From contig CM102284.1 in NCBI GenBank assembly GCA_046563655.1, positions 6,758,001 through 6,822,000 on the forward strand: DNA of 64,000 nt, written 5' to 3'. This document shows positions 10,589 through 34,932 of the stretch, piece by piece. The position numbers and the translations under genes were made by a program. This DNA is from Yuukianura sp. NJ FZ-2021. Taxonomy: Eukaryota. Each line of letters opens with the position of its first letter. Positions within the stretch are counted from its first letter, which is position 1. The notes under the pieces are model-generated. The model saw only the letters and a program-made list of their open reading frames with translations. It did not search any database and had not been told where the DNA came from.

Positions 10589-12177
10589 TTATTTGTGCTT
10601 GGACAAGTTGAGATTCACGTCCTTGGTGTGAAACAGTTCGAACATCAACTCAGGGTACTGCAGCGTAAAGGCTTTGAACCGTTGCGAATCAGCGAGAAGG
10701 CTGTCACGATTACTGTGAAAACAATTAAAAGTTTAGAATTTCAGTTTTAGAAAGTTCAAAATGTCGTGTGTAAGAATAACTTACCTGAGAATCAAATTTT
10801 TGGCCATTTGGACCAAAACTTTTCCGTTGCACTTGGTTCCGACAGTGTACATCTCCGTGGCGTTGTCAATGTTGATCTTGGTAGCCAAATGCCGTTCGCA
10901 CATCAGATGAAGGTCAGTGACCAAGTATTTGTCGGCAGCCCAGAACAAGAGCTTGACTGAATCTTCAAAATCTTCCACTTCTCCGGTGTACATGAATCGT
11001 AGGACTTCCTTGAACAAGTATGGGTCACAATCTGTGATGTTGATGGCACCTTGGTTGTCAGTAATGTCTTGCAGTGAAGAGAGAAACAGATTCGCAAAGT
11101 AACTGCTCCGTGCTGAAATCGACATAAGACGATGGGTCATACTAACTGTAATTGTGAAGATTTTTTTTTGTAGATGTTGAGTTTTACCAGCTAGGACGAG
11201 ACGATGAGCCGGGAACTCCTGGTCTGCACATCTAATGCGAATGTCTGACAGTGTCGGGGACAAAAACAATGGTTTCGTGTCCATGAGGCCTCGATGGGAA
11301 TGAAAAGGCATGAGAAAGTCGTTGTCTGATGATTCGACCAGGAACTTCATCGGTTTATCTGGAATCATCAACAACAAAGTTGAGTAACAGGTTAGATATT
11401 AAACTTACGGAATGATTGATTGGCCACTTACACTCCCGTCGCACGATATCCATAGTAAATCGGAGTTCAGTGACCTTGTCCGTCCATGTACTGGAGTTGT
11501 CATACGTGTCTCCTGCCCACATCCAGTACTTGTAGTTTTGATACTTCCGTATCCCAAATTCATAATCACATTCTTTGGTAGCTGGTCCCATTGACTTGAC
11601 CTCTCGTTCCGAGGGCGAGTAATCCAGTCCATCAGAGGCACTGATGAATCGAACTCGGAAATTGGTCACATTAACTTCCTCGTTTGGTTGAGATGACAGG
11701 CAAACAAAGATAAAAATGTCCAGCACTTGTGGATCCGAGCTACTCGAGGCCATTGGTTGGTACTCGTAGGGGTTGAATGGCTTCGGAGATTCCGCCTTTG
11801 ACAACACATTTGGTTTGGCAAAGTACAATTTCCTGGAATGTATGAATAACAAATTACTTCCTTGTCAAAATACATCAACAAAGACTGTTATTCCAGAAAT
11901 AAACTTACACTGAATGCTGCACATTAAACAGGATTCCAGTTGAGAAACTGATGTCCTGACCTGCGACCTTGAGATTCTGCTTATTCAAGTGGTCAACAAT
12001 CTCACTGCGTGGGGGAACTTTGACGGAGAAAATATACGTATCGTCTTCCTTGGTCCCGCACTAATGAAACAAAAAACACGGTTTCAATTAGACTAAATGT
12101 ATCCTTAAAATTTCAAACGAATCGATTGATGAATTCAGTAACCTTACCTCCAGCCTGAAATGTTTGATCTCAGCCAT
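10589..12177 (-). CDS. SPOP/roadkill-like BTB(-BACK) protein with a divergent N-terminal region
   Basis: Six in-frame GT-AG exons: 12177-12148, 12060-11909, 11832-11432, 11358-11188, 11112-10785, 10712-10589. BTB motifs SDIRIRCADQEFPAHRLVLAARSSYF, ITDCDPYLFKEVLRFMYTG and AADKY...LHLMCE; SPOP-like C-terminus YPELMFELF. Confidence 0.85.
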
Positions 12178-13291: not shown

Positions 13292-14027
13292 ATGCGTTTT
13301 GCTTTAATTTTTTGTGCACTTGCAATTAGTAAACATCTACTAATTGTTCTCTGCGTAAGTAGTTTCAAGAAATTTTCTAAATCTAAATAAGTTTAGAAAT
13401 AACAAATCCTATCTAGGAATTTTGTTCTAAAATTTTAAAGTTTGCATTTTACTTTTTTTCTGAATCTACAGTTACCTAACGAAAATGACTCGGGTGAACC
13501 GCTCTTTATCAAGGAAGCAAGTAAGGATTATGGTTTCAAAATTCTGTAGTATTTCCAGGCCACCAAATTTTGAAAAATCTTGAAATTTGAAATTTCACTT
13601 TCGACATATTTTCTAAATCAAAATCCTTCGAATTCTAGGAAACTTTGGTGGGATTTTGGGAGGTGGGACCGGTATAGGAGGCGGTGGATTTCCTGGAATT
13701 GGCGGTGGATCCAACATAAGATTTTACAAGTTGAATGTGCCTACAAAACCACCCGGTACACAAACAACAACAACAACAACAACAAAAGCACCCCTTACCA
13801 AAGAACTCTGTTGCAAACATATGTGCGCTGATTCTTGCAATGATGCCGATGGAGCTGATCCTGCCCAACATTGTCTAGTTGGAGGAAGTCCTACAGCTGG
13901 AACACCATGTGTAAACAGTGCCAAATACCCAGAATGTAAAACATTCGCAGAAAAGCTTAATGATCCTAACTGTAAATCGGATACGGGCTCATGTCCAGCT
14001 GATGAAACAATGGTCTGTCCAAAATAA
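13292..14027 (+). CDS. Small secreted Gly-rich/Thr-rich/10-Cys protein (~166 aa), family not recognised
   Basis: Exons 13292-13354 (signal-like MRFALIFCALAISKHLLIVLC), 13472-13520 and 13639-14027 join in frame through canonical gtaag...ag introns. Confidence 0.75.
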
Positions 14028-19368: not shown

Positions 19369-19825
19369 AACGAAGGTGTAGTAGAAAGAAGAAAGTTAAT
19401 TAATTAATTAAAGTTGTGGGATTTAGAAATTAGTAAATGTAATAAATTATTACTATATATTATAAATAAATCTATAATATAAGTATTTAGTCCTCCCACG
19501 CCATGTAAATAATAATTTAATTCAGAATAGGTAAACAGTGAGCCTCGGTTGCTAAAAGATCACAGTGCGTTTTGTGTTGATCTTTGCGTGTCGTGCAGAC
19601 TGCTATCCAAAAAAGTGGACCCTCGATTTTGGCCGGATGCTATGCGGGGATTATGCGGAGCAAAAAGGTTCCCGTCTTTTTTCAAATTTTTTGTGACGTC
19701 ACTTCTTCTAATTTTGTGACGTCACTTATCTTATCTCGCATTCCCTTACGGCATTCCCATAATTTCCATAGCCGAGAAAAATTAATTTTTATGCGGCGTC
19801 TCGGCTTTTAGTGATGAATTTTCTT
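19369..19825 (-). repeat. Dispersed repeat family, copy 2 (long form with AT-rich arm)
   Basis: Reverse complement of the core in copies 1, 4 and 6. The AT-rich arm aligns with copies 5 and 6. Confidence 0.85.
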
Positions 19826-20641
19826 AAAATTGTTCTTTTGAGTTTTGGAATTTCTGAAAACTAAATTAATTTTGAAATTCACAGCCAAAGCTTTAATAAC
19901 GAATTAATAGTCATTTTTTGTCAACTTTGTGCTTCTTCACCATTGAATTGAAGTTGAGCTGTAGGTAGTACATAGTACATGTTTCACTGTTTAATTATTC
20001 TTAAGCTATGAGTTTTCTTTCATTAGAGAATGAAGGAACGCAGAAGACTAATATAACTTTTTAGCATTTTGGCACAATTGGCTACGTTGTGTCCAGAATC
20101 TATTTTTTGTTTGGTTTGAAGGTCAGTGGTTCAGGTGTGTCTGTGTTGGCCATAATTTTCTCCAGTTGGTTGATGAGATGTCAATTCCAATTCCAGTTTG
20201 GGTGGTATTTCCCACGGGAGGACCAGATTCTAGTTAAGTTTCTGAGAAACATGCGATGAATATTCTCAAATTAATGTCTGGACAATTCTAATTTAAGTCA
20301 TGTTTTAGTATTAGTAGGATGTCAATGTCAACTAGGCAGAAGTGACAGAGCACGCGTCTTCCAGTGTTCTGGTGACCTTTGGATCACTTTCCAACAGTAG
20401 CAGTTAAATTGGATTTTAGTGGCTCTCGGAACAGCGGTTTTATTTCTGTCTTCGTCATTCCATTGTTCTTCCGTTCTTTGTCTTGTCATCAGCCTTCTTC
20501 TGAATTGCAAAACAGAAGAGGTGGGAGTGAACAAAAACAGATTAGTCAACAACTGAACTCTACAGTGGCAACAATACCTCTAACAACTTCCAAAATTCAA
20601 TCAGTGAAGTACTTGCATCAGTTGCAACGCAAATCCTTGAA

Positions 20642-20660
20642 ATGGGATTGTTCAGAACAG
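20642..20660 (+). CDS. Candidate alternative first coding exon of the serpin (MGLFRT)
   Basis: ATG GGA TTG TTC AGA ACA G|gtaag: strong phase-1 donor, in frame with exon 2 at 21812. Confidence 0.5.
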
Positions 20661-21690
20661 GTAAGATTTCAAAATCAATTTCAGAAACTAAACGCATCTA
20701 GACTTTGTCAATTTTGAATTCTACGGGATTCGTTTAAAGTTGCAAAAATTTCAAAAGAGCTTGGGGTTTTCTAATTCCAAATTTTTCCAGACTAGTTTGT
20801 TGCATTTGCGTCATTTTCCAAGAAAACCTCGAACCTGTTTCAAATTTACAATTGAAATTATTTCGTGAAGCGTCAAATTGTATTTGACTTTGATTCTTAT
20901 GCATAAATTGATTCCAAACTCACTTCGTTAATGTATAAATAGCTTAGTATTGCGTTAATTACTGCAACTTCTCCAAAGTAAAGTAAATCCGAATAGAACT
21001 CAATATTTAAATGGAAGTTTAGCATTAGGTAATAAGTTGAGAATTTAAGGAGGATGGAAATTCCATAATTGGATTTACGCAACCTACCTTTCTAAGAACA
21101 GAGCAAACTTGGAGCTAAGCTTTGTTCAACTTCGTATTTTGCATGTTAGTAAACATGCAATTGCAAACTAAAATTCAATTTAGGATGCTCTCACCCTAAC
21201 ACAATTTTGGCTAAACTTTTTTTGGTCTTTTAGCGATATCCTACGTGTAGCTGTCCATGTTAAACCGTTAGCCTTGTTCCCTACACGTCGAAAGAACTCT
21301 ATTAGGAAGAACAGCAAAAAGCCTCAGGTCACATTAGAGTTTCTAAATTAGTCGATTGACCTTTGCACGTAGTACCTGTTGGGAAATTCAAATTCCTAAA
21401 AAGTGCTTTTGTCCATCGTCAAAAATAAATTTCTACACGTACACGTTCGCTCGAATTTTAGTTGGATTTTTACTTCTACTTGGAAGTTGAGACGCGAAAG
21501 ACAATTTTTGCACTGAAATCTGCAAAACTTTTTGCAAACGCGCGAAAGCAGCTCTTTCGATTCCAAAATCTGAGCAAAATAAACAAAGTGAAGCAGATTA
21601 TAAAGTTGTGCGAAAGTGGTAGTAACAGTTTAGTTGTGTAGAATCTGTTCACAAAACAAGTTACGATAAAACTGAGTGAAAGCCATAAAA

Positions 21691-24126
21691 ATGCGGACGC
21701 TTTGTACTACGTGTAAGTTTGAACTTTGTTAGAACGTTTGTAGCAATTTTTTGGAAGTTGATTTTTGGTATAGTGTTTGAAATTCATAATTTTTGTAATT
21801 TTTTTTTCCAGATTTTCGATTTGTGGCTATGTCCACAGTGATCTTCGGTTCGTTACTGTCAAGCTGTATCGGTTCACGGGTAGACCCTACTGTCAATCCT
21901 ACTGCTATTGGAGCTGCTTCAGAAGCAAATGTCCACTTTGCCAGTGACCTGTACTCGGTAATTTTGGAAATAAAAATTTCAAAATTCCAACATTTTCAGT
22001 TTCAGTAGTTAGAGATGATGATTTTTAAGTTGTTCATATTTAAGGCTTACTTCAATCACATCTGCAAAAAATAACAAACTTTCACATATTGGTGTCTTCA
22101 TATTTCTGTTCCAAAATTTTTGTTTAAAAGGCTTTGAGGAAATCTCAACCAGAAAATTTGATCTTTTCTCCGCTGAGTGTGAGCGCAGTCCTTGCCATGC
22201 TGAAAACTGGTGCTCGTGGTGAAACTGAAAGAGAAATTCAAAAGGCTTTGCGCTTTCCACTTGAAGATAACAGACTTAACGAAGGCTGGAAGGGCATTCT
22301 GGAGTCAATGCGGGTAAGACAAAATTTGACATAACATGCCCGAACTTTGCTAAATTTCACTTTCTTAAGGAATACAGAGTAAAGATTGACGCAAAACGGT
22401 TTGCTTTAGTTTCGCCCGAGGTGTCGAAAAAAGTTTTCTGGAACACTTCAAACGAATTTTCTCACCTTCGCTTCTCTTAATGACAAAAATTAACGCCAAT
22501 TTCCTAACAACTTTCACCTTGAAGCCAAATCGGTTTTCTTCCACCATTAAATTTTATGATTCATTTCATTACGAGAGCTTGCTTGAACCAAAAACATAAA
22601 CAACTTACATAATGTTTGCAAAAACAAGTTCAAGTTTGCGTCATTTGTTAACTTTGTTAACTAACCTAAAAAGCATAACTTTTGATTCCAGGGAAAGAAA
22701 AACGTAACCTTGGATATTGCAAACAACGTTTACTCCAGTGCTGGATTTGAATTGAATCCGCAGTATGTCAAAGATCTTGCAAATTATTTTGCGGTCAAAG
22801 TTGAGCAATTGGATTTCACATCAGCACAATCTGCACGAACGATTAATAATTGGGTGGAAGGACTCACGCACAATCGGATCAAGGATTTGATCAGTCCAGG
22901 TAAGACTGATCAAAAATTAATGTTAAACTATGCCTAGGTCACTTTTTAGCTGATTTTTTAGTTAGAGGTCATTGACCTTTTGACCTATTTTGGTTTCTAG
23001 GTGACCTGGATTCGAATACCCGGCTCGTCCTGGTCAATGGAATTTACTTCAAGGGAAAATGGGCTAAGCAATTTGACCCAGAAGAAACAGCTCCAGGCCA
23101 ATTCCATATTTCACCGACGCAAGAAGTGACTGTGGACATGATGCAGATTGTTTCTGATTTTTCTTATGCCGAAGTCCCAGAACTTGATGCCCAAGCAGTT
23201 GGAATTCCATATCAGGCAAATTTCAAATTTTTAGAAAGGAACTTGGTTTTCAAAGAAAGTTTTCAAAAATGTTGATTTTTTTCAAATTTAGGAGAAGAAT
23301 TTCATGATGATCATCCTGCTTCCTCATAAGAAGAACGGACTTGCAGAAATGGAAGCCAAACTTAAGGATTATCCATTGACCCGCCTTCCACCGACGATGG
23401 AAAAAGAGAAAGTCAATTTGCAAATGCCAAAATTCAAGTTAGAGTCTACCATCGACTTGAAGGCTCCATTAAGCGCTGTAAGTTTTTGGCTTTTCGAGCA
23501 AATTGACATCAAATTTTGAAGGGTTTTTGCAATTTTGAAATTTTGAATTCTTCTTACGTTATAGTTAGGTTTGAGCTCCATTTTCTCTGAGGAGAAAGCC
23601 GATTTCACTGGAATTCCACAGAATCCACTTGGGAACAACCTCTACGTTTCCAAAGCCGTTCAGAAGGCATTCATTGAAGTGAATGAAGAAGGAAGCGAAG
23701 CGGCGGCAGCTACAGGTCAGTTTTTTTTTAGTGTTAAAAGATGACCTTCGTCCTTTGTCACATTGTAGAATCGTAGAATTTGGGAGTATAGCTTCAACGC
23801 TTTTCTAAACTTTCCTCTGCTTTCACTAGTTTCTAGCTTTTTGACTAAAATAGGTAATTCGGACTTCTTTTGAGAATTTGCAAGAGGTCAAGGGTTAAGT
23901 TAAGACAAAAAATGAATCTCATGAATGAGAAATTGACGGTTTGTTGAAATTAGGATCTTTGATACGGATGAAGAGATCTCTACCGGAGTTTAAAACAATT
24001 CAATTTGAAGTGAATCACCCATTTGTTAGTCTAATTGTTACGACTGATGACGAACCTACTCTCCTCTTCATGATCTCAGTTACTAAACCGTTAGGATTTG
24101 AAACGTCGCCTAAAGATGAACTCTAG
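21691..24126 (+). CDS. Inhibitory serpin, Spn42Da/Spn4-like; common exons plus terminal exon A (RMKR-S loop, C-terminal KDEL)
   Basis: Exons 21691-21712, 21812-21957, 22131-22313, 22692-22899, 23001-23215 (GC donor), 23292-23477, 23565-23715, 23954-24126. Motifs [36 protein letters not shown], hinge [20 protein letters not shown] at 24168. Confidence 0.93.
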
Positions 24127-24576
24127 TTACCTACAAAAAATCCTCACCTTACTAATTCAAATCTTCAAATAAAATTAAACGTTCAATTTTGTTGGTCAAC
24201 ACTGCTTCTCTAAACATCCGCTTAAATTTTTGTTTCCTTCTACGCACTCTTTTAAATCATAAAAACATAAGTTTGAATTGTAATATAGACCTGTGTTGTG
24301 ATTTGTTTCTTAAATAGTTATAATTATTAATGTGCCAAATACTTAGCTTTCAAAACGAAAATTTGAAATTTTGAAAAACTTGTTCTAAAAATTAGAGCTG
24401 AATCCTACATCGCAACTAATCTAATCCTTGCCTAGCTAAGCTGACAAACTTTGGTGAAGCGTTTTCCTGCGAATTTTTGGAATTTGTCCAGTTGAAATTT
24501 CCCAATTCTAAAAAGTGAATTTCATAAAGTGAAAGTTGCATTTTCTCGATTTACTTTCTCGCGGAACGCTCTTTAG

Positions 24577-24734
24577 AGGAAGCGGTAGCAGCCAGATTTC
24601 TATCAGATTCTGATGGGATTCCAGTGACAATTGACCACCCTTTTCTGTTTTTGGTTGTTTCGAAAACTGATCGACGCAATTCTAAATTTAAAATTAGGCA
24701 AATTCTGTTCATAGGCGTCATTTCATCAAAATGA
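24577..24734 (+). CDS. Serpin alternative terminal (RCL) exon B
   Basis: Phase-1 acceptor ctttag. Reads EEAVAAR-FLSDSDGIPVTIDHPFLFLVV...QILFIGVISSK*. Too short to appear in the ORF track. Confidence 0.8.
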
Positions 24735-24984
24735 ATTTTGTAAAACACCAAACTAAAAAAAACTGAATGAAAGAATCAAAAAGAAAATTACTTTCTCTTT
24801 GAAAAAACGGAAAACGATTTCAAATGAAAGTCGTCAATCAGTCATGAGAAATCGATAACATTTGCTTGACCTTTGGTTGAAATTGGAACTAAAATTGATT
24901 AAACTTGTACAAATTCGGAATGAACTTAATGAAACTAATAGTTTTGGTTTGAATGGGCGTGTCCCTTTGTATCCTTTATTCCAG

Positions 24985-25292
24985 GCGTAATGATTCAGGT
25001 CAAGAGTGCTTTTCCCAGACAACAACCAATTGATTTCATCTGTGACCAACCGTTCATGGCCATCATCTACGATATGAACTACGATCTCCATCTTTTCTGG
25101 ACTTCCGTCAGAAATCCACTGGTTGCAGAAGCTCAATTCAGAAACGAACCACTTACAGATGAAGAACACAAGAATAGTGAAGCAGGAGGCACCAAGGACA
25201 CCAAGGGCAGCGCAATTGCAGGTCAAGGGTCAATGACCTTGACTCTTGTCACCATAGGGTTCCTACACCTCACTTACCGAGCTTTTTACTAA
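24985..25292 (+). CDS. Serpin alternative terminal (RCL) exon C with a 57-aa extension ending in a GPI-like signal
   Basis: Phase-1 acceptor ttccag. Reads GVMIQVK-SAFPRQQPIDFICDQPF...LFWTSVRNP, then a polar linker and KGSAIAGQGSMTLTLVTIGFLHLTYRAFY*. Confidence 0.85.
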
Positions 25293-25517
25293 AATAACGA
25301 TTTTACTAAGCAAAGTCACAGTTTAACTTAAAATTTACGAATTTTTGACTTCTCATTTGGAAAAATTGTTCGTAGTTTTAATTTTTAATTCTCCCGTCCT
25401 TGGGTGTGGTGGGGCACGCACGGCCAAACTCACACTGACAACTTACACTTTTTTAAATTTAAGTTTTTTTGAAATCTTCACTGAATTTTGAAAAACAAAC
25501 AAGATTTTGTTGTGTAG

Positions 25518-25702
25518 TCGCCCGAATCGGTCGACGATTTTTCTTTGTGGAACAACAACCAGAGCCACGCAATGTCCGAGTCGACCATCCCTTTCACCTT
25601 ATGATTCTTGCGTCAACTGGACAAGCATTTGCGTCAGCAGTGACGCAGACGCTGCTCTTTTCAGCATCAGTAGTCCAGCCGACTCCGTCAGCCTCCAGCT
25701 AA
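25518..25702 (+). CDS. Serpin alternative terminal (RCL) exon D
   Basis: Phase-1 acceptor tgtgtag. Reads VARIGRR-FFFVEQQPEPRNVRVDHPFHLMIL...LLFSASVVQP. AATAAA at ~25829. Confidence 0.82.
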
Positions 25703-26038
25703 AATGTGTTACCCACCAACCCCCAAAAGTTTAAAACTCTTCCATTCCATATGTATAGATATGATTTTTAGAAATTTCAGTTTTTCTTTGAAAACCTTGT
25801 CTCAAATTTAGTTCAAACAACTGATAATAATAAAATACTTTTAATTTAAATCTGGAAGCTTTCGGAGTTCCACTTGTTTAATAGCGGTCTTTAGCGTCTG
25901 TAGAGTTGTACTTGCGGGGTTTGATGTCTGTAAAGTCTAAAATGTGATTTGGTTTGTTAAAGCTTATGGGACTTATTTAGTTCAAAAAAATTTCGGTGGT
26001 TTTAATTAACCTCTGCTTGGAAACTTGTGACCTTGTAG

Positions 26039-26220
26039 CGTTTACATTGATGGCGAGGTCAGCTAAGAGACCAACAAAACCAAAACAAATGATCGTTGAT
26101 CATCCGTTTGCGTTTGCAATCTGTGCCAAGCCAGGAAAAACGGAAAACTGGACGCTACTTTTCGTCGGAAAAGTGACAAATCTACCAAAGAAGCATCCAA
26201 AATCTAAGCAAAAGTTCTGA
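26039..26220 (+). CDS. Serpin alternative terminal (RCL) exon E
   Basis: Phase-1 acceptor ttgtag. Reads AFTLMAR-SAKRPTKPKQMIVDHPFAFAI...LLFVGKVTNLPKKHPKSKQKF*. AATAAA at ~26290. Confidence 0.85.
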
Positions 26221-26394
26221 AATCTCTATCGTTTCCTTCATAATTTTTACTAAAACTTGGAAAATTAAAATGTAAAGTTTTTAATTTTAAATAAAGAGTT
26301 TTTAATTGGATGATTAAATTTTGTTTAAATTGTTCAAAATAAGGCAGATCAGTGTGTTGTGAACTGATAATTATTCTTGTACGTCACTTAGAAC

Positions 26395-26606
26395 ATAATT
26401 TAATTCAGCATTGGAGAGCAGTGAGTGTCGGTAGCTACAATCTCACAGTGTGATTTGTGTTGACTTTTGCGTGTCGTGCAGACTGCTATCTTAAAAGTGA
26501 GCCTTCGATTTTGGCCGGATGCTATGCGGGGATTATGCGGAGCAGAAAGGTTCCCGCCTTTTTTCAACTTTTCTGTGACGTCACTGATTCCAACTTTGTG
26601 ACGTCT
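26395..26606 (-). repeat. Dispersed repeat family, copy 3 (truncated)
   Basis: cagtgagtgtcggt...gtcgtgcagactgctatc...ttggccggatgctatgcggggattatgcgg...gtgacgtcac. Confidence 0.85.
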
Positions 26607-27089
26607 TGAATGCTCTTCTCTGGCGGGAAAAGTTTGAATTTTTCAATTTTAAAATTTAAACATTTTTAATTTCAAATTGATTCAAACATCAAACTTCAAA
26701 GCATTTATCTTTACGCAGTTTCTGCAACGATAGTTTTAATTAACTTTTTTAATTAATTAGGTGTAGCGTCGTTTGACAACTGTCTTTGTGATTTTGTACA
26801 ATACATTGTGATTCTGTGAGTGAAATAGCGTCGTGTAGCGGGGATCACTTGAGGTTCAAAATGGGAAAACAACAACTTTGAGAAAACATCTTTTGCGACT
26901 AAGGTTAAGTTAGATTTCAAATCAAAGTTTAAATTAAGTAAGCATGAAACTGTAATGGTAATGATTAATTGTGGCTACTTGTTGACAGTTTCTCAGAAAT
27001 CACGAATTGCAAGCAGTTTTTTAATTGAGGCGCGGAGGACAGTGAACCAAGCAGTCAAATGAAGAGCAAATTGATCGAAGAATAGCAAA

Positions 27090-32240: not shown

Positions 32241-33342
32241 ATGGACATTTTGAAGATTTTGGTGTGCGTATTGATGGGGGCTTTAACAGGTAATGAAGAT
32301 ATGAAACGTTGAATTTTGAATCATTCCGAAGCATAAATTGCGAATAGTAATTGCGAAGCATTTTTTCAAAATATTTCTAAAATTTTTAGACTTTTGAAAT
32401 TGATTTTGTTTGTGCTGATATTTGCAGTGACTTCTGAAGCAGTAGCAGGAGATGCAGACAGAGAAGGGACAATGGACCAGAGAACTAGGCTCCATCGTGA
32501 ACTGTTGGACAATTATGACAGCAAAGTATATCCGGATAAACCAAATGTCACCTTTGGTGTCAGCCTCATCAACCTAGACATCGTATGTAAAACTTTTATG
32601 TACTTGATTTTCATTTTCAAAATATTTTGAACATTTTGAAAAGATTATAAAAATTGTCAATCTTTTGCAGAACGAATTGAGAAGTACGCTTGAGACGAAC
32701 GTTTGGATCAAAATGGTACGAAACTTCTTTGATTAGTTGACGAAGTGCAGAACAGTTGAAACGTTTTAACTGGAATGTTTAACTTTTAACTTTAGGTTTG
32801 GTACGACAGTCGCCTCATGTGGGACACTATGGAATTTCCAGTATCGCTTCTGCGCATGGACTACAATACAATATGGCATCCTGATATAACGCTTTACAAC
32901 TCCGCTGACGCCTCCATGTCCATTGGCGGCACTGCTTGTTGGAAGTCCAATGTCCTTGTGTATCCTTCTGGAAAAGTGCTGTGGGTTCCACCATGTCACT
33001 TTAGTTCATTCTGCATGCAGACCGCTTCGCAATACGATTTGCAAACCTGTTTTCTTAAATTCGGTTCGTGGACGATGGATTCGGAAATTATGGACCTTAA
33101 TTTGTACCAAAACGTGAGCAACTCGTAACAAATTCTTTCTGTTTCCAGTAATTCAATTGTGTTTTTAGGTAACGACAATTGACATGTCCGACTTTTGGGA
33201 TTTGTCCAATTGGAAAGTGGTGTCAACGGAGGCAGTCAAAAACGTCAAATTCTACGAGTGTTGTCCAGAACCCTATGCTGACCTGACGTTCAAGGTGAAC
33301 TTCAAGCGGAAACCACCAAAGGACCTTGTTTGCTCTGTTTAA
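32241..33342 (+). CDS. Soluble nicotinic-receptor ectodomain protein (AChBP-like) 1, ~246 aa
   Basis: Exons 32241-32289, 32428-32582, 32671-32715, 32796-33113, 33169-33342. Signal peptide; NVW (loop D), WHPDITLYN (loop A), Cys-loop, KFGSWT (loop B), YECCPEPY (loop C). Stop follows RKPPKDLVCSV with no TM region. Confidence 0.88.
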
Positions 33343-33836
33343 AATTGAAAACTGCAAGCATTTTAGATGATTTGAGGACAATAGTTAGTGAAAGTCATCT
33401 TGATTGAAGTTTTGCGTCAACAGGCTTGTTTATCACTTTTCAGCAGTAGCAATCGGATGATCCATGAAAAACAGATTTTGCTAAATTAAGCTTTTCCTTC
33501 ACTTTGTTATATACTTGCGTGACAAAAGACTCCGAATTGCATAATCTTTTGAGCATGTTTTTGTCTGTCATTACGCTGAGAATGACGACAATACGAACAT
33601 ATTGGTCATTACAATGGCCTGTTTTTCTCTAAGAAAGCAATTAACTTTTATTTTGGAATTGTAAGAACCTCACATCTGTCCTTGCTGGATTAAACTTGAC
33701 GTCTTTGGAGGTCATACTAATTCTAGAGCACAGATTTTTTAACGGTTCCTATAAATACGAAGGTTTGACATTTTATTTGCACAAGACTTGGAAAATTTAA
33801 AATCTTGAATCACAGAAACTAAAGTTGCGGTGTATA

Positions 33837-34932
33837 ATGAAATCGGCGTTGGTTTTCGTTTTGGTCGTGGCAATTGGTGAGTAGTACTTACTTTTTCTGC
33901 TCATTTTCAAAATTTCTGAAAATTATGACATGTTATGAATTTCAGCATACTTTGCTGCTGGCGATGACACGGTCATCAGTACGAGTAAAAGTCAAACGCA
34001 AGGAATTTCGAAACAAGGAGATGCAAAACTTCGAACGAGTCTTTTTCGCTCGTTGATGGAAAATTACGAAAGTGGAATCAATCCGGATGAAGCCAGTGTC
34101 AAGTTTGGTGTTAGCCTCCTAAGTGTTGCCATTGTAAGTCAAAATTTTCAAAATCACGGGTCCAATTCAAAATTATCTTGCAAAATTCTTCAGTCTGTCG
34201 AAATTTTTACAATTTCAATTTTTCAGAATGAAGATGAGTCAACAATGGAATCTAACGTGTGGCTCCGATTTGTAAGTTTAGTTTATTTCAAATCAAAAAT
34301 CGTTTCCTAAATTTTGAAAATCAAGTGTCGCCTCATAATTGTTTGTCAATTTCCTTTTCATTTTTAGTCTTGGCACGACGCTCGCTTGGCTTGGGATACG
34401 AACGTTTTTCCAATTGACGTAATACGCATCGAGGCTTCTAACCTTTGGCGTCCTGACATAAGGTTGTTCAATGCTGCTGACACTTTCTCTACCTCCACTT
34501 CCTGTTCTGAAACTAACACAGTCGTGAAATCAAACGGAGATGTCATTTGGATTCCACCGTGTCACCTCAGTTCCATCTGCAAAACGACGCTCAAGTTGCA
34601 CCCCTTTGAGCAGCAGACGTGTCCACTCAAATTCGGATCTTGGACCTACGACAGCGCCATCATGGACGTCGACTTTTTTGGCAACGTTAGTAACAACTTA
34701 ATGCAATATTTGAATCCTCAACATGAAAAATCGGTTTTAACATTTTGTGTATGTTGATTTGCAGGAAACTACGATTGACGTGACTGAATTCCAAGACCTT
34801 ACAGACTGGAAACTACTGTCTACTCAAGGCGTCAAGAATATCAAGGTTTATCCGTGCTGTCCAGAACCCTACGGTGACCTGACCTTCAACGTGACGCTTC
34901 AGCGTAAACCCGAGGGAGATCGCTGCAACTAA
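33837..34932 (+). CDS. Soluble nicotinic-receptor ectodomain protein (AChBP-like) 2, ~252 aa
   Basis: Exons 33837-33876, 33946-34133, 34227-34271, 34368-34685, 34765-34932, with the same intron positions as copy 1. SNVWLR, WRPDIRLFN, C-13x-C loop, KFGSWTYD, YPCCPEPY. Stop after RKPEGDRCN. TATAAATA at ~33749. Confidence 0.88.

Follow-up and report, generated by a model that had tools for sequence, protein, structure and literature searches.

A springtail serpin gene with five alternative last exons, one of which encodes a putative glycosylphosphatidylinositol-attachment signal

The stretch of the Yuukianura sp. NJ FZ-2021 genome analyzed here (contig CM102284.1, positions 6,758,001 to 6,822,000; hereafter the window, 64 kb) carries on its + strand one serpin gene in which 7 shared exons lead to 5 alternative terminal exons, A to E (Table 1). 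We consider it very probable that this is a single springtail gene for inhibitory serpins in which splicing connects one donor with any one of five last exons, each setting both the bait loop and the C-terminal address of the product. With less assurance, we also favor the view that the cassette includes a glycosylphosphatidylinositol (GPI)-anchored isoform, encoded by exon C, and that it would send basic-specific inhibitors to the lumen of the endoplasmic reticulum (ER) by means of KDEL, to the cell surface by means of GPI, and into solution or onto polyanions. Exon switching would then yield, through exon C, a serpin that is GPI-anchored by nature, shared by different springtail orders and not seen in the insect cassettes sampled. 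The architecture of the cassette is ordinary and known from insects, and the novelty lies in the conserved, probably GPI-anchored isoform; it is accordingly the tail of exon C, rather than the cassette, that holds the main interest. At the level of titles and abstracts, the literature covered, which leaves most subscription journals outside, describes neither a natural GPI-anchored serpin nor springtail serpin isoforms.

One serpin body and five last exons

Joined together, the shared exons can be read without a stop for 370 codons plus one base, from the ATG at 21691 to the hinge, and Pfam Serpin (PF00079) matches above the cut-off fall on shared exons 5 and 7. Inhibitory serpins have a hinge with Glu at P17, Gly at P15, Ser or Thr at P14 and small residues from P12 to P9, and exon 7 ends in this pattern, followed by a phase-1 donor (CAG/gtcagt) after 23715. 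Every one of the spliced models retains 68-69 of the 70 columns that are conserved in at least 90% of 65 relatives. The intron at 23216-23291, following shared exon 5, is a non-canonical GC-AG intron (CAG/gcaaat) that the open frame requires. Only 2 donors of the form GT[AG]AG occur in 19700-21800, each with an in-frame ATG, and since either candidate first exon would be followed by the hydrophobic leader of exon 2 (best 11-residue mean 2.12 at residues 17-27; a putative signal peptide on hydropathy only), all isoforms would probably enter the secretory pathway. No cytosolic form was seen among these two candidate first exons, and the 11 isoforms of the Folsomia candida relative described below all start with a hydrophobic leader.

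The original prediction placed the hinge and a phase-1 donor at 23715 and five acceptors at 23954, 24577, 24985, 25518 and 26039; all are present, and the coordinates are correct. Each terminal exon has an AG acceptor, a frame in phase with the 23715 donor and its own stop, and because each ends the frame we infer that they are alternative last exons, mutually exclusive through their terminal position. A [DN][HQ]PF motif lies 19-22 residues into every one of them, and all six frames of the window together hold just 5 instances of the form [DN][HQRK]PF, one per terminal exon. A scan for an acceptor plus the motif returned 7 matches on the + strand (the five exons, with three acceptors for B) and 0 on the - strand. 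All five exons also align with the last part of the Pfam Serpin profile, their best stretches falling inside positions 331-370 at E values from 2.7e-5 to 0.074, with scores under the 27-bit whole-protein cut-off, as fragments would be; the loop, motif and final strands predicted for each exon are borne out. Their GC content is 38-52%, versus 23-34% in the surrounding gaps, and no sixth serpin-like exon was found among phase-1 acceptor frames of at least 38 aa in 23716-27000. Poly(A)-like hexamers (AATAAA or ATTAAA) lie downstream of A, B, D and E. Over the serpin part the five exons share only 23-39% pairwise identity, and for this reason the duplications among them are judged to be old.

Table 1. 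Exons of the serpin gene, in window coordinates
Feature	Position	Strand	Remarks
Candidate alternative first coding exon	20642..20660	+	ATG; phase-1 donor GTAAG at 20661; in frame to 21812
First coding exon	21691..21712	+	ATG; phase 1
Shared exon 2	21812..21957	+	Hydrophobic core of predicted signal peptide; start of helix A
Shared exon 3	22131..22313	+	Shutter SPLS
Shared exon 4	22692..22899	+	
Shared exon 5	23001..23215	+	LVNGIYFKG; Pfam Serpin E 4e-21; GC-AG intron next
Shared exon 6	23292..23477	+	
Shared exon 7	23565..23715	+	Ends in inhibitory hinge plus one G; common phase-1 donor; Pfam Serpin E 1.4e-13
Last exon A	23954..24126	+	Loop RMKR/S; C-terminal KDEL; AATAAA at 24168
Last exon B	24577..24734	+	Loop VAAR/F; no tail; least secure, several possible acceptors; ATTAAA at 24898
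Last exon C	24985..25292	+	Loop QVK/SAF; polar linker; GSA 28 residues from end; hydrophobic C-terminus
Last exon D	25518..25702	+	Loop IGRR/F; short Ser/Pro tail; AATAAA at 25829
Last exon E	26039..26220	+	Loop LMAR/S; basic tail, net +5 over last 14 residues; AATAAA at 26290

To compare loops, the ten residues that follow the hinge in each of the window's last exons were set against 330 distinct ends of all fetched serpins; tails were compared over 340 distinct ends, the window's five included, with ends longer than 200 aa after the hinge or lacking a recognized hinge excluded. The springtail and insect ends are those among the matches listed, and the insect sampling is partial. Counted strictly from P17, the P1 residues of A to E are K, R, K, R and R; for exon A the bond of furin type, R/S, falls one residue beyond the strict P1, but P1 is basic under either reading, and the predicted basic character of all five P1 residues therefore stands. 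A strict P1 of K or R is found in 140 of the 330 ends (42%) and in 7 of the 10 Folsomia ends, and five out of five is mildly notable (0.42^5, or ~0.013, if the ends were independent, which they are not). With all five loops basic, the cassette would appear to vary location as much as specificity.

We envisage that the shared exons supply the signal peptide and all of the serpin body as far as the hinge and that the 23715 donor is then joined to one of the five acceptors, as the splice sites and the orthologs indicate, with the chosen last exon contributing the bait loop, the final strands and the C-terminal address. Exon A would present a bait of the furin or proprotein convertase (PC) type on a product retained in the ER by KDEL. 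Exon C would present a Lys bait on a product whose tail is cut off and replaced by a GPI anchor, placing the inhibitor at the outer cell surface or the apical membrane. Exon E would combine an Arg bait with a cationic tail that might conceivably bind polyanions, and exons B and D would yield soluble Arg/Phe baits for trypsin-like proteases. Serpins inhibit by a suicide mechanism, and the isoforms would be expected to act on their proteases through this standard route. Exon choice would most likely reflect competition among the 3' splice sites combined with polyadenylation specific to each exon. When the intron that begins after 23715 was paired with the 200 nt upstream of each of exons B to E, no docking/selector RNA pairing stood out, with 5, 8, 10 and 8 of 30 shuffles equally low.

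Springtail relatives and the tail of exon C

The closest named protein among the matches listed is a Folsomia candida serpin (XP_021950948-56, XP_035706985-7), which has 11 RefSeq isoforms and, among those matches, 10 distinct C-termini; in every case the sequences part directly behind the same hinge. Allacma fusca has two annotated isoforms (CAG7786208/9) with identical N-termini and different ends, and further relatives among the matches come from Orchesella, including CAL8143173. Core identity between the window gene and these springtail orthologs is 50-54%. A quick tree built from 63 serpin cores puts the window gene in a clade of 13 rows, together with proteins of Folsomia, Allacma and Orchesella (two) and 8 further rows (Shimodaira-Hasegawa-like approximate likelihood ratio test, SH-aLRT, 98), and this clade lies inside a 55-row group (99) that also holds insect cassette genes and copepod serpins, in which no clear sister to it emerges. 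With the Allacma match of the neighbouring transporter gene (see below), these relatives point to a springtail as the source of the window. A homolog search with one exon alone gave 8 distant matches. Folsomia and Orchesella have an ER-type exon like window exon A, Folsomia and Allacma have a K/SAF exon with a hydrophobic tail like exon C, and the Allacma isoform with a MAR loop has a basic end (+6) like exon E. The two repertoires differ in that two of the ten Folsomia ends are hydrophobic-tailed and three of the ten have a non-basic P1, whereas the five window ends are all basic.

Exon A is the most readily placed of the five. It combines an R-x-K/R-R loop (RMKR/S), KDEL and the hydrophobic leader, and its best loop match among the 330 ends is Folsomia X5 (RKRR/S, ending in RSEL). 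ER-type C-terminal tetrapeptides occur in 15 of the 340 ends, exon A included, and the other 14, from springtails, a cockroach and beetles, all carry a furin-like Arg loop, which is dibasic in 13. Given that every other ER-type end carries such a loop, exon A can be assigned by its sequence to a known type of exon, that of the ER-retained inhibitors of PCs such as furin, and inhibition of this kind is predicted for its product.

In exon C the frame continues for about 58 codons past the last serpin strand, at a GC content (47%) like that of coding exons, and the hydrophobic finish contains one charged residue in the last 22. By rule of thumb, a GPI signal consists of a polar linker, small residues at omega, omega+1 and omega+2, a spacer and a hydrophobic C-terminus with no cytoplasmic tail, and the tail of exon C is probably such an attachment-signal-like sequence. 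A length of at least 75 aa is reached by 12 of the 340 ends, and four finish in a stretch that is clearly hydrophobic (best 15-residue mean 1.45-2.45): Allacma CAG7786209, Folsomia X1/X3, Folsomia X2 and exon C itself. In each of the four, a triplet of small residues lies 23-34 positions before the C-terminus and no more than one of the last 22 residues is charged, and the three K/SAF tails have a common pattern. The next most hydrophobic ends are two Gryllus models at 1.02, which have one common tail and look like annotation artefacts, and no GPI-like tail was found among the sampled insect ends. An Atlas search with exon C returned short serpin fragments only, with scores below 0.8. In the AlphaFold model of Folsomia X2 (mean predicted local distance difference test score, pLDDT, 86.9) the tail lies outside the fold, with a linker at 421-443 (pLDDT <50) followed by a helix at 445-460.

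The top two loop matches of exon C among the 330 ends are Folsomia X2 (SLK/SAF), scoring 33, and Allacma CAG7786209 (TLK/SAF), scoring 28; the next scores 23 and the mean is 5.5. Only three ends outside the window have a hydrophobic tail, and these two are among them, so that a loop and its address seem to have been passed on as a unit. For exon E the best match, Folsomia X1 (TAR/S), is tied with one other protein. Folsomia X1 and X3 carry a GPI-like tail on this TAR/S loop, which resembles that of exon E, whose own tail is basic; since the loops are alike and the tails differ, tails may also have been gained or lost independently of loops. Conservation in relatives, on which the original prediction had staked the cassette, is thus found: the counterparts of A and C keep both loop and tail, and Folsomia switches at the same hinge. 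The further proposal that one splice choice sets both target and address is supported by A and C, whose counterparts keep the two together; B and D lack a clear counterpart.

Several observations weigh against the GPI-anchored cassette as we read it. Of the four tails, that of the window has the lowest hydropathy, with a mean of 0.94 over the last 20 residues versus 1.74-1.96 in the other three, and in BLAST the alignment of exon C with Folsomia X2 is limited to the first 46-48 residues. The terminal helix of the Folsomia X2 model is of low confidence (pLDDT about 50-59), and a canonical poly(A) hexamer is missing between exon C and exon D. As for the isoforms of Folsomia and Allacma, they are themselves database gene models, produced by automatic annotation under generic names. 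To these must be added that B and D have no good loop match among the 330 ends (best scores 14 and 9).

The most serious alternative, to which we give a modest share of belief, is that the cassette is real and the tail of exon C is a retained C-terminal membrane helix, or a hydrophobic segment that holds the protein in the ER or Golgi, rather than a GPI signal. The 16-residue terminal helix of the Folsomia X2 model would suit it, as would the Folsomia and Allacma tails, whose best 15-residue means of 2.1-2.45 are of membrane-span grade. The window tail (1.45), however, is weak for a stable span, none of the four tails has a charged cytoplasmic segment past the hydrophobic stretch, and all four have their small-residue triplet at the distance from the C-terminus that is typical of omega sites.

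A second alternative, somewhat less likely again, is that only A, C and perhaps E are functional, with B and D being decaying duplicates or rarely used. It would account for the missing loop counterparts of B and D, for the acidic start and several possible acceptors of exon B, and for the weakest Pfam scores, which belong to these two exons (E 0.051 and 0.074); high exon turnover is also reported for the insect cassettes (PMC10513286). Both frames nevertheless remain open and keep all conserved terminal columns (69/70), both have Arg at P1 exactly 17 residues from P17, and both are followed by a poly(A)-like hexamer.

We regard it as very improbable that the tail of exon C plays no part in targeting and arose merely because the frame happens to stay open into untranslated sequence. 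As many as 30 of the 333 stop-free window segments of at least 58 aa do end as hydrophobically as exon C, but only one of the 333, exon C itself, has the polar linker too; the GC content of the tail is coding-like, and this explanation is largely refuted by two further springtail genera, in which the same loop comes with a tail of the same kind. That the five exons are pieces of separate truncated serpin genes or pseudo-exons, with no spliced cassette, is scarcely credible given that the gaps between them contain neither a hinge nor any upstream part of a serpin, that a single donor fits the phase of all five, and that the Folsomia ortholog is annotated with the same switching.

Comparison with known serpin cassettes

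The original prediction that the strategy is shared with insects agrees with published cassettes of Spn42Da and of the serpin-1 clade (PMC4006314, PMC10513286). In a survey of insect RefSeq proteins, C-terminal splicing was reported for 192 of the 731 genes of one clade, in 161 of these at position +1 after the hinge (PMC10513286), and the window gene, which switches at the hinge's end plus one G, in phase 1, follows the same rule. The alternative regions of Pteromalus PpSerpin-1 are 44-50 aa long (PMC10513286), compared with the 102 aa given by exon C. The main text of the survey never mentions Collembola, Folsomia, GPI, transmembrane or anchor (PMC10513286). The window cassette by itself is one more member of this system, but it shows the system in non-insect hexapods, beyond the published insect survey. 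Anopheles SRPN10 reportedly uses the same strategy.

The nearest well-described parallel is Drosophila Spn42Da. Among natural PDB entries the best match to shared exon 5 is Spn42Da (4p0f), followed by serpin K (1sek) and alaserpin (1k9o), which we take to be isoforms of Manduca serpin-1; the best fold match of the Folsomia X2 model is 4p0o, cleaved Spn42Da. Four loop exons give eight Spn42Da isoforms, with or without a signal peptide, that target proteases of the subtilase, papain and chymotrypsin families, and parallels in nematodes and urochordates are cited (PMC4006314). The A and B isoforms are cleaved after RRKR (PMC4006314), and Spn4A combines an RRKR loop with an HDEL end (PMC4147316). 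The window gene is like Spn42Da in placing alternative loop exons on one serpin body, with one isoform carrying a furin-type loop and an ER tetrapeptide. It is unlike Spn42Da in that its five loops are all basic and both of its candidate starts keep the predicted signal peptide, and also in the GPI-like tail of exon C, of which no equivalent is described for Spn42Da in the portions of these two papers covered here (PMC4006314, PMC4147316).

ER-retained, PC-inhibiting serpins (Spn-1) with an MKR/S loop and a KDEL or HEEL end are reported from lancelet and sea urchin, the lancelet protein having MMKR/S with KDEL, and the authors caution that the likeness of Spn-1 to arthropod Spn4 may be convergent (PMC2556349). 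Exon A resembles Spn-1 in both loop and ER end; no loop-exon cassette is described for Spn-1 in the sections of that report considered here (PMC2556349). Nor is membrane attachment of serpins new, since the Schistosoma haematobium serpin ShSPI, placed on the surface of the adult worm, was termed 'membrane-anchored' in a 1999 title (PMC8310332). The anchor of ShSPI is reportedly N-terminal, rather than an exon-switched C-terminal GPI signal.

If exon C is indeed GPI-anchored, serpins would gain a cell-surface address by a route that we have not found described in the literature. A tethered suicide inhibitor of this sort could control trypsin-like cascades at gut, epidermis or haemocyte membranes, and it could also take the trapped protease into the cell. 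A direct test is possible in Folsomia candida, a laboratory species in which the matching isoform (XP_021950949) is already annotated.

Genome context

A Pfam serpin search of the assembly (98.7 Mb, 22 contigs) gave 39 exon-level matches. At the other Pfam-matching serpin loci, covered as 10 stretches of 10 kb, the motif scan and tblastn found no run of extra terminal exons, although diverged motifs would escape the scan. One of the serpin loci, contig C5 9526000-9535999, contains three tandem serpin domains with non-canonical hinges and basic loop regions, and is either a multi-domain serpin or a tight gene cluster.

Within the window, the serpin gene has a dicarboxylate/amino-acid transporter gene on one side, whose best match (72%) is from Allacma fusca, and a gene of the importin-beta family on the other. 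To either side of the serpin gene lies a copy of a ~230-nt repeat, the two in direct orientation (window 19498-19723 and 26381-26605). We considered this repeat as a possible part of the cassette and rejected it as a dispersed repeat: 40 of 69 candidate copies were scored, and the 5.5-9.0 Mb part of contig C2 holds all 40, a local confinement that suggests a locally spreading non-autonomous element. Upstream of the serpin gene, 20052-20579 (-) is GC-richer, with short open frames, and is possibly a decayed gene piece. Elsewhere in the window we noted a BTB-domain-like gene, recognized by eye, at 10781-11864 (-), an exon of a probable secreted protein with Gly-rich, Thr-rich and Cys-rich character at 13617-14027, and, at 32796-34757, two tandem groups of open reading frames that resemble nicotinic receptor ligand-binding domains.

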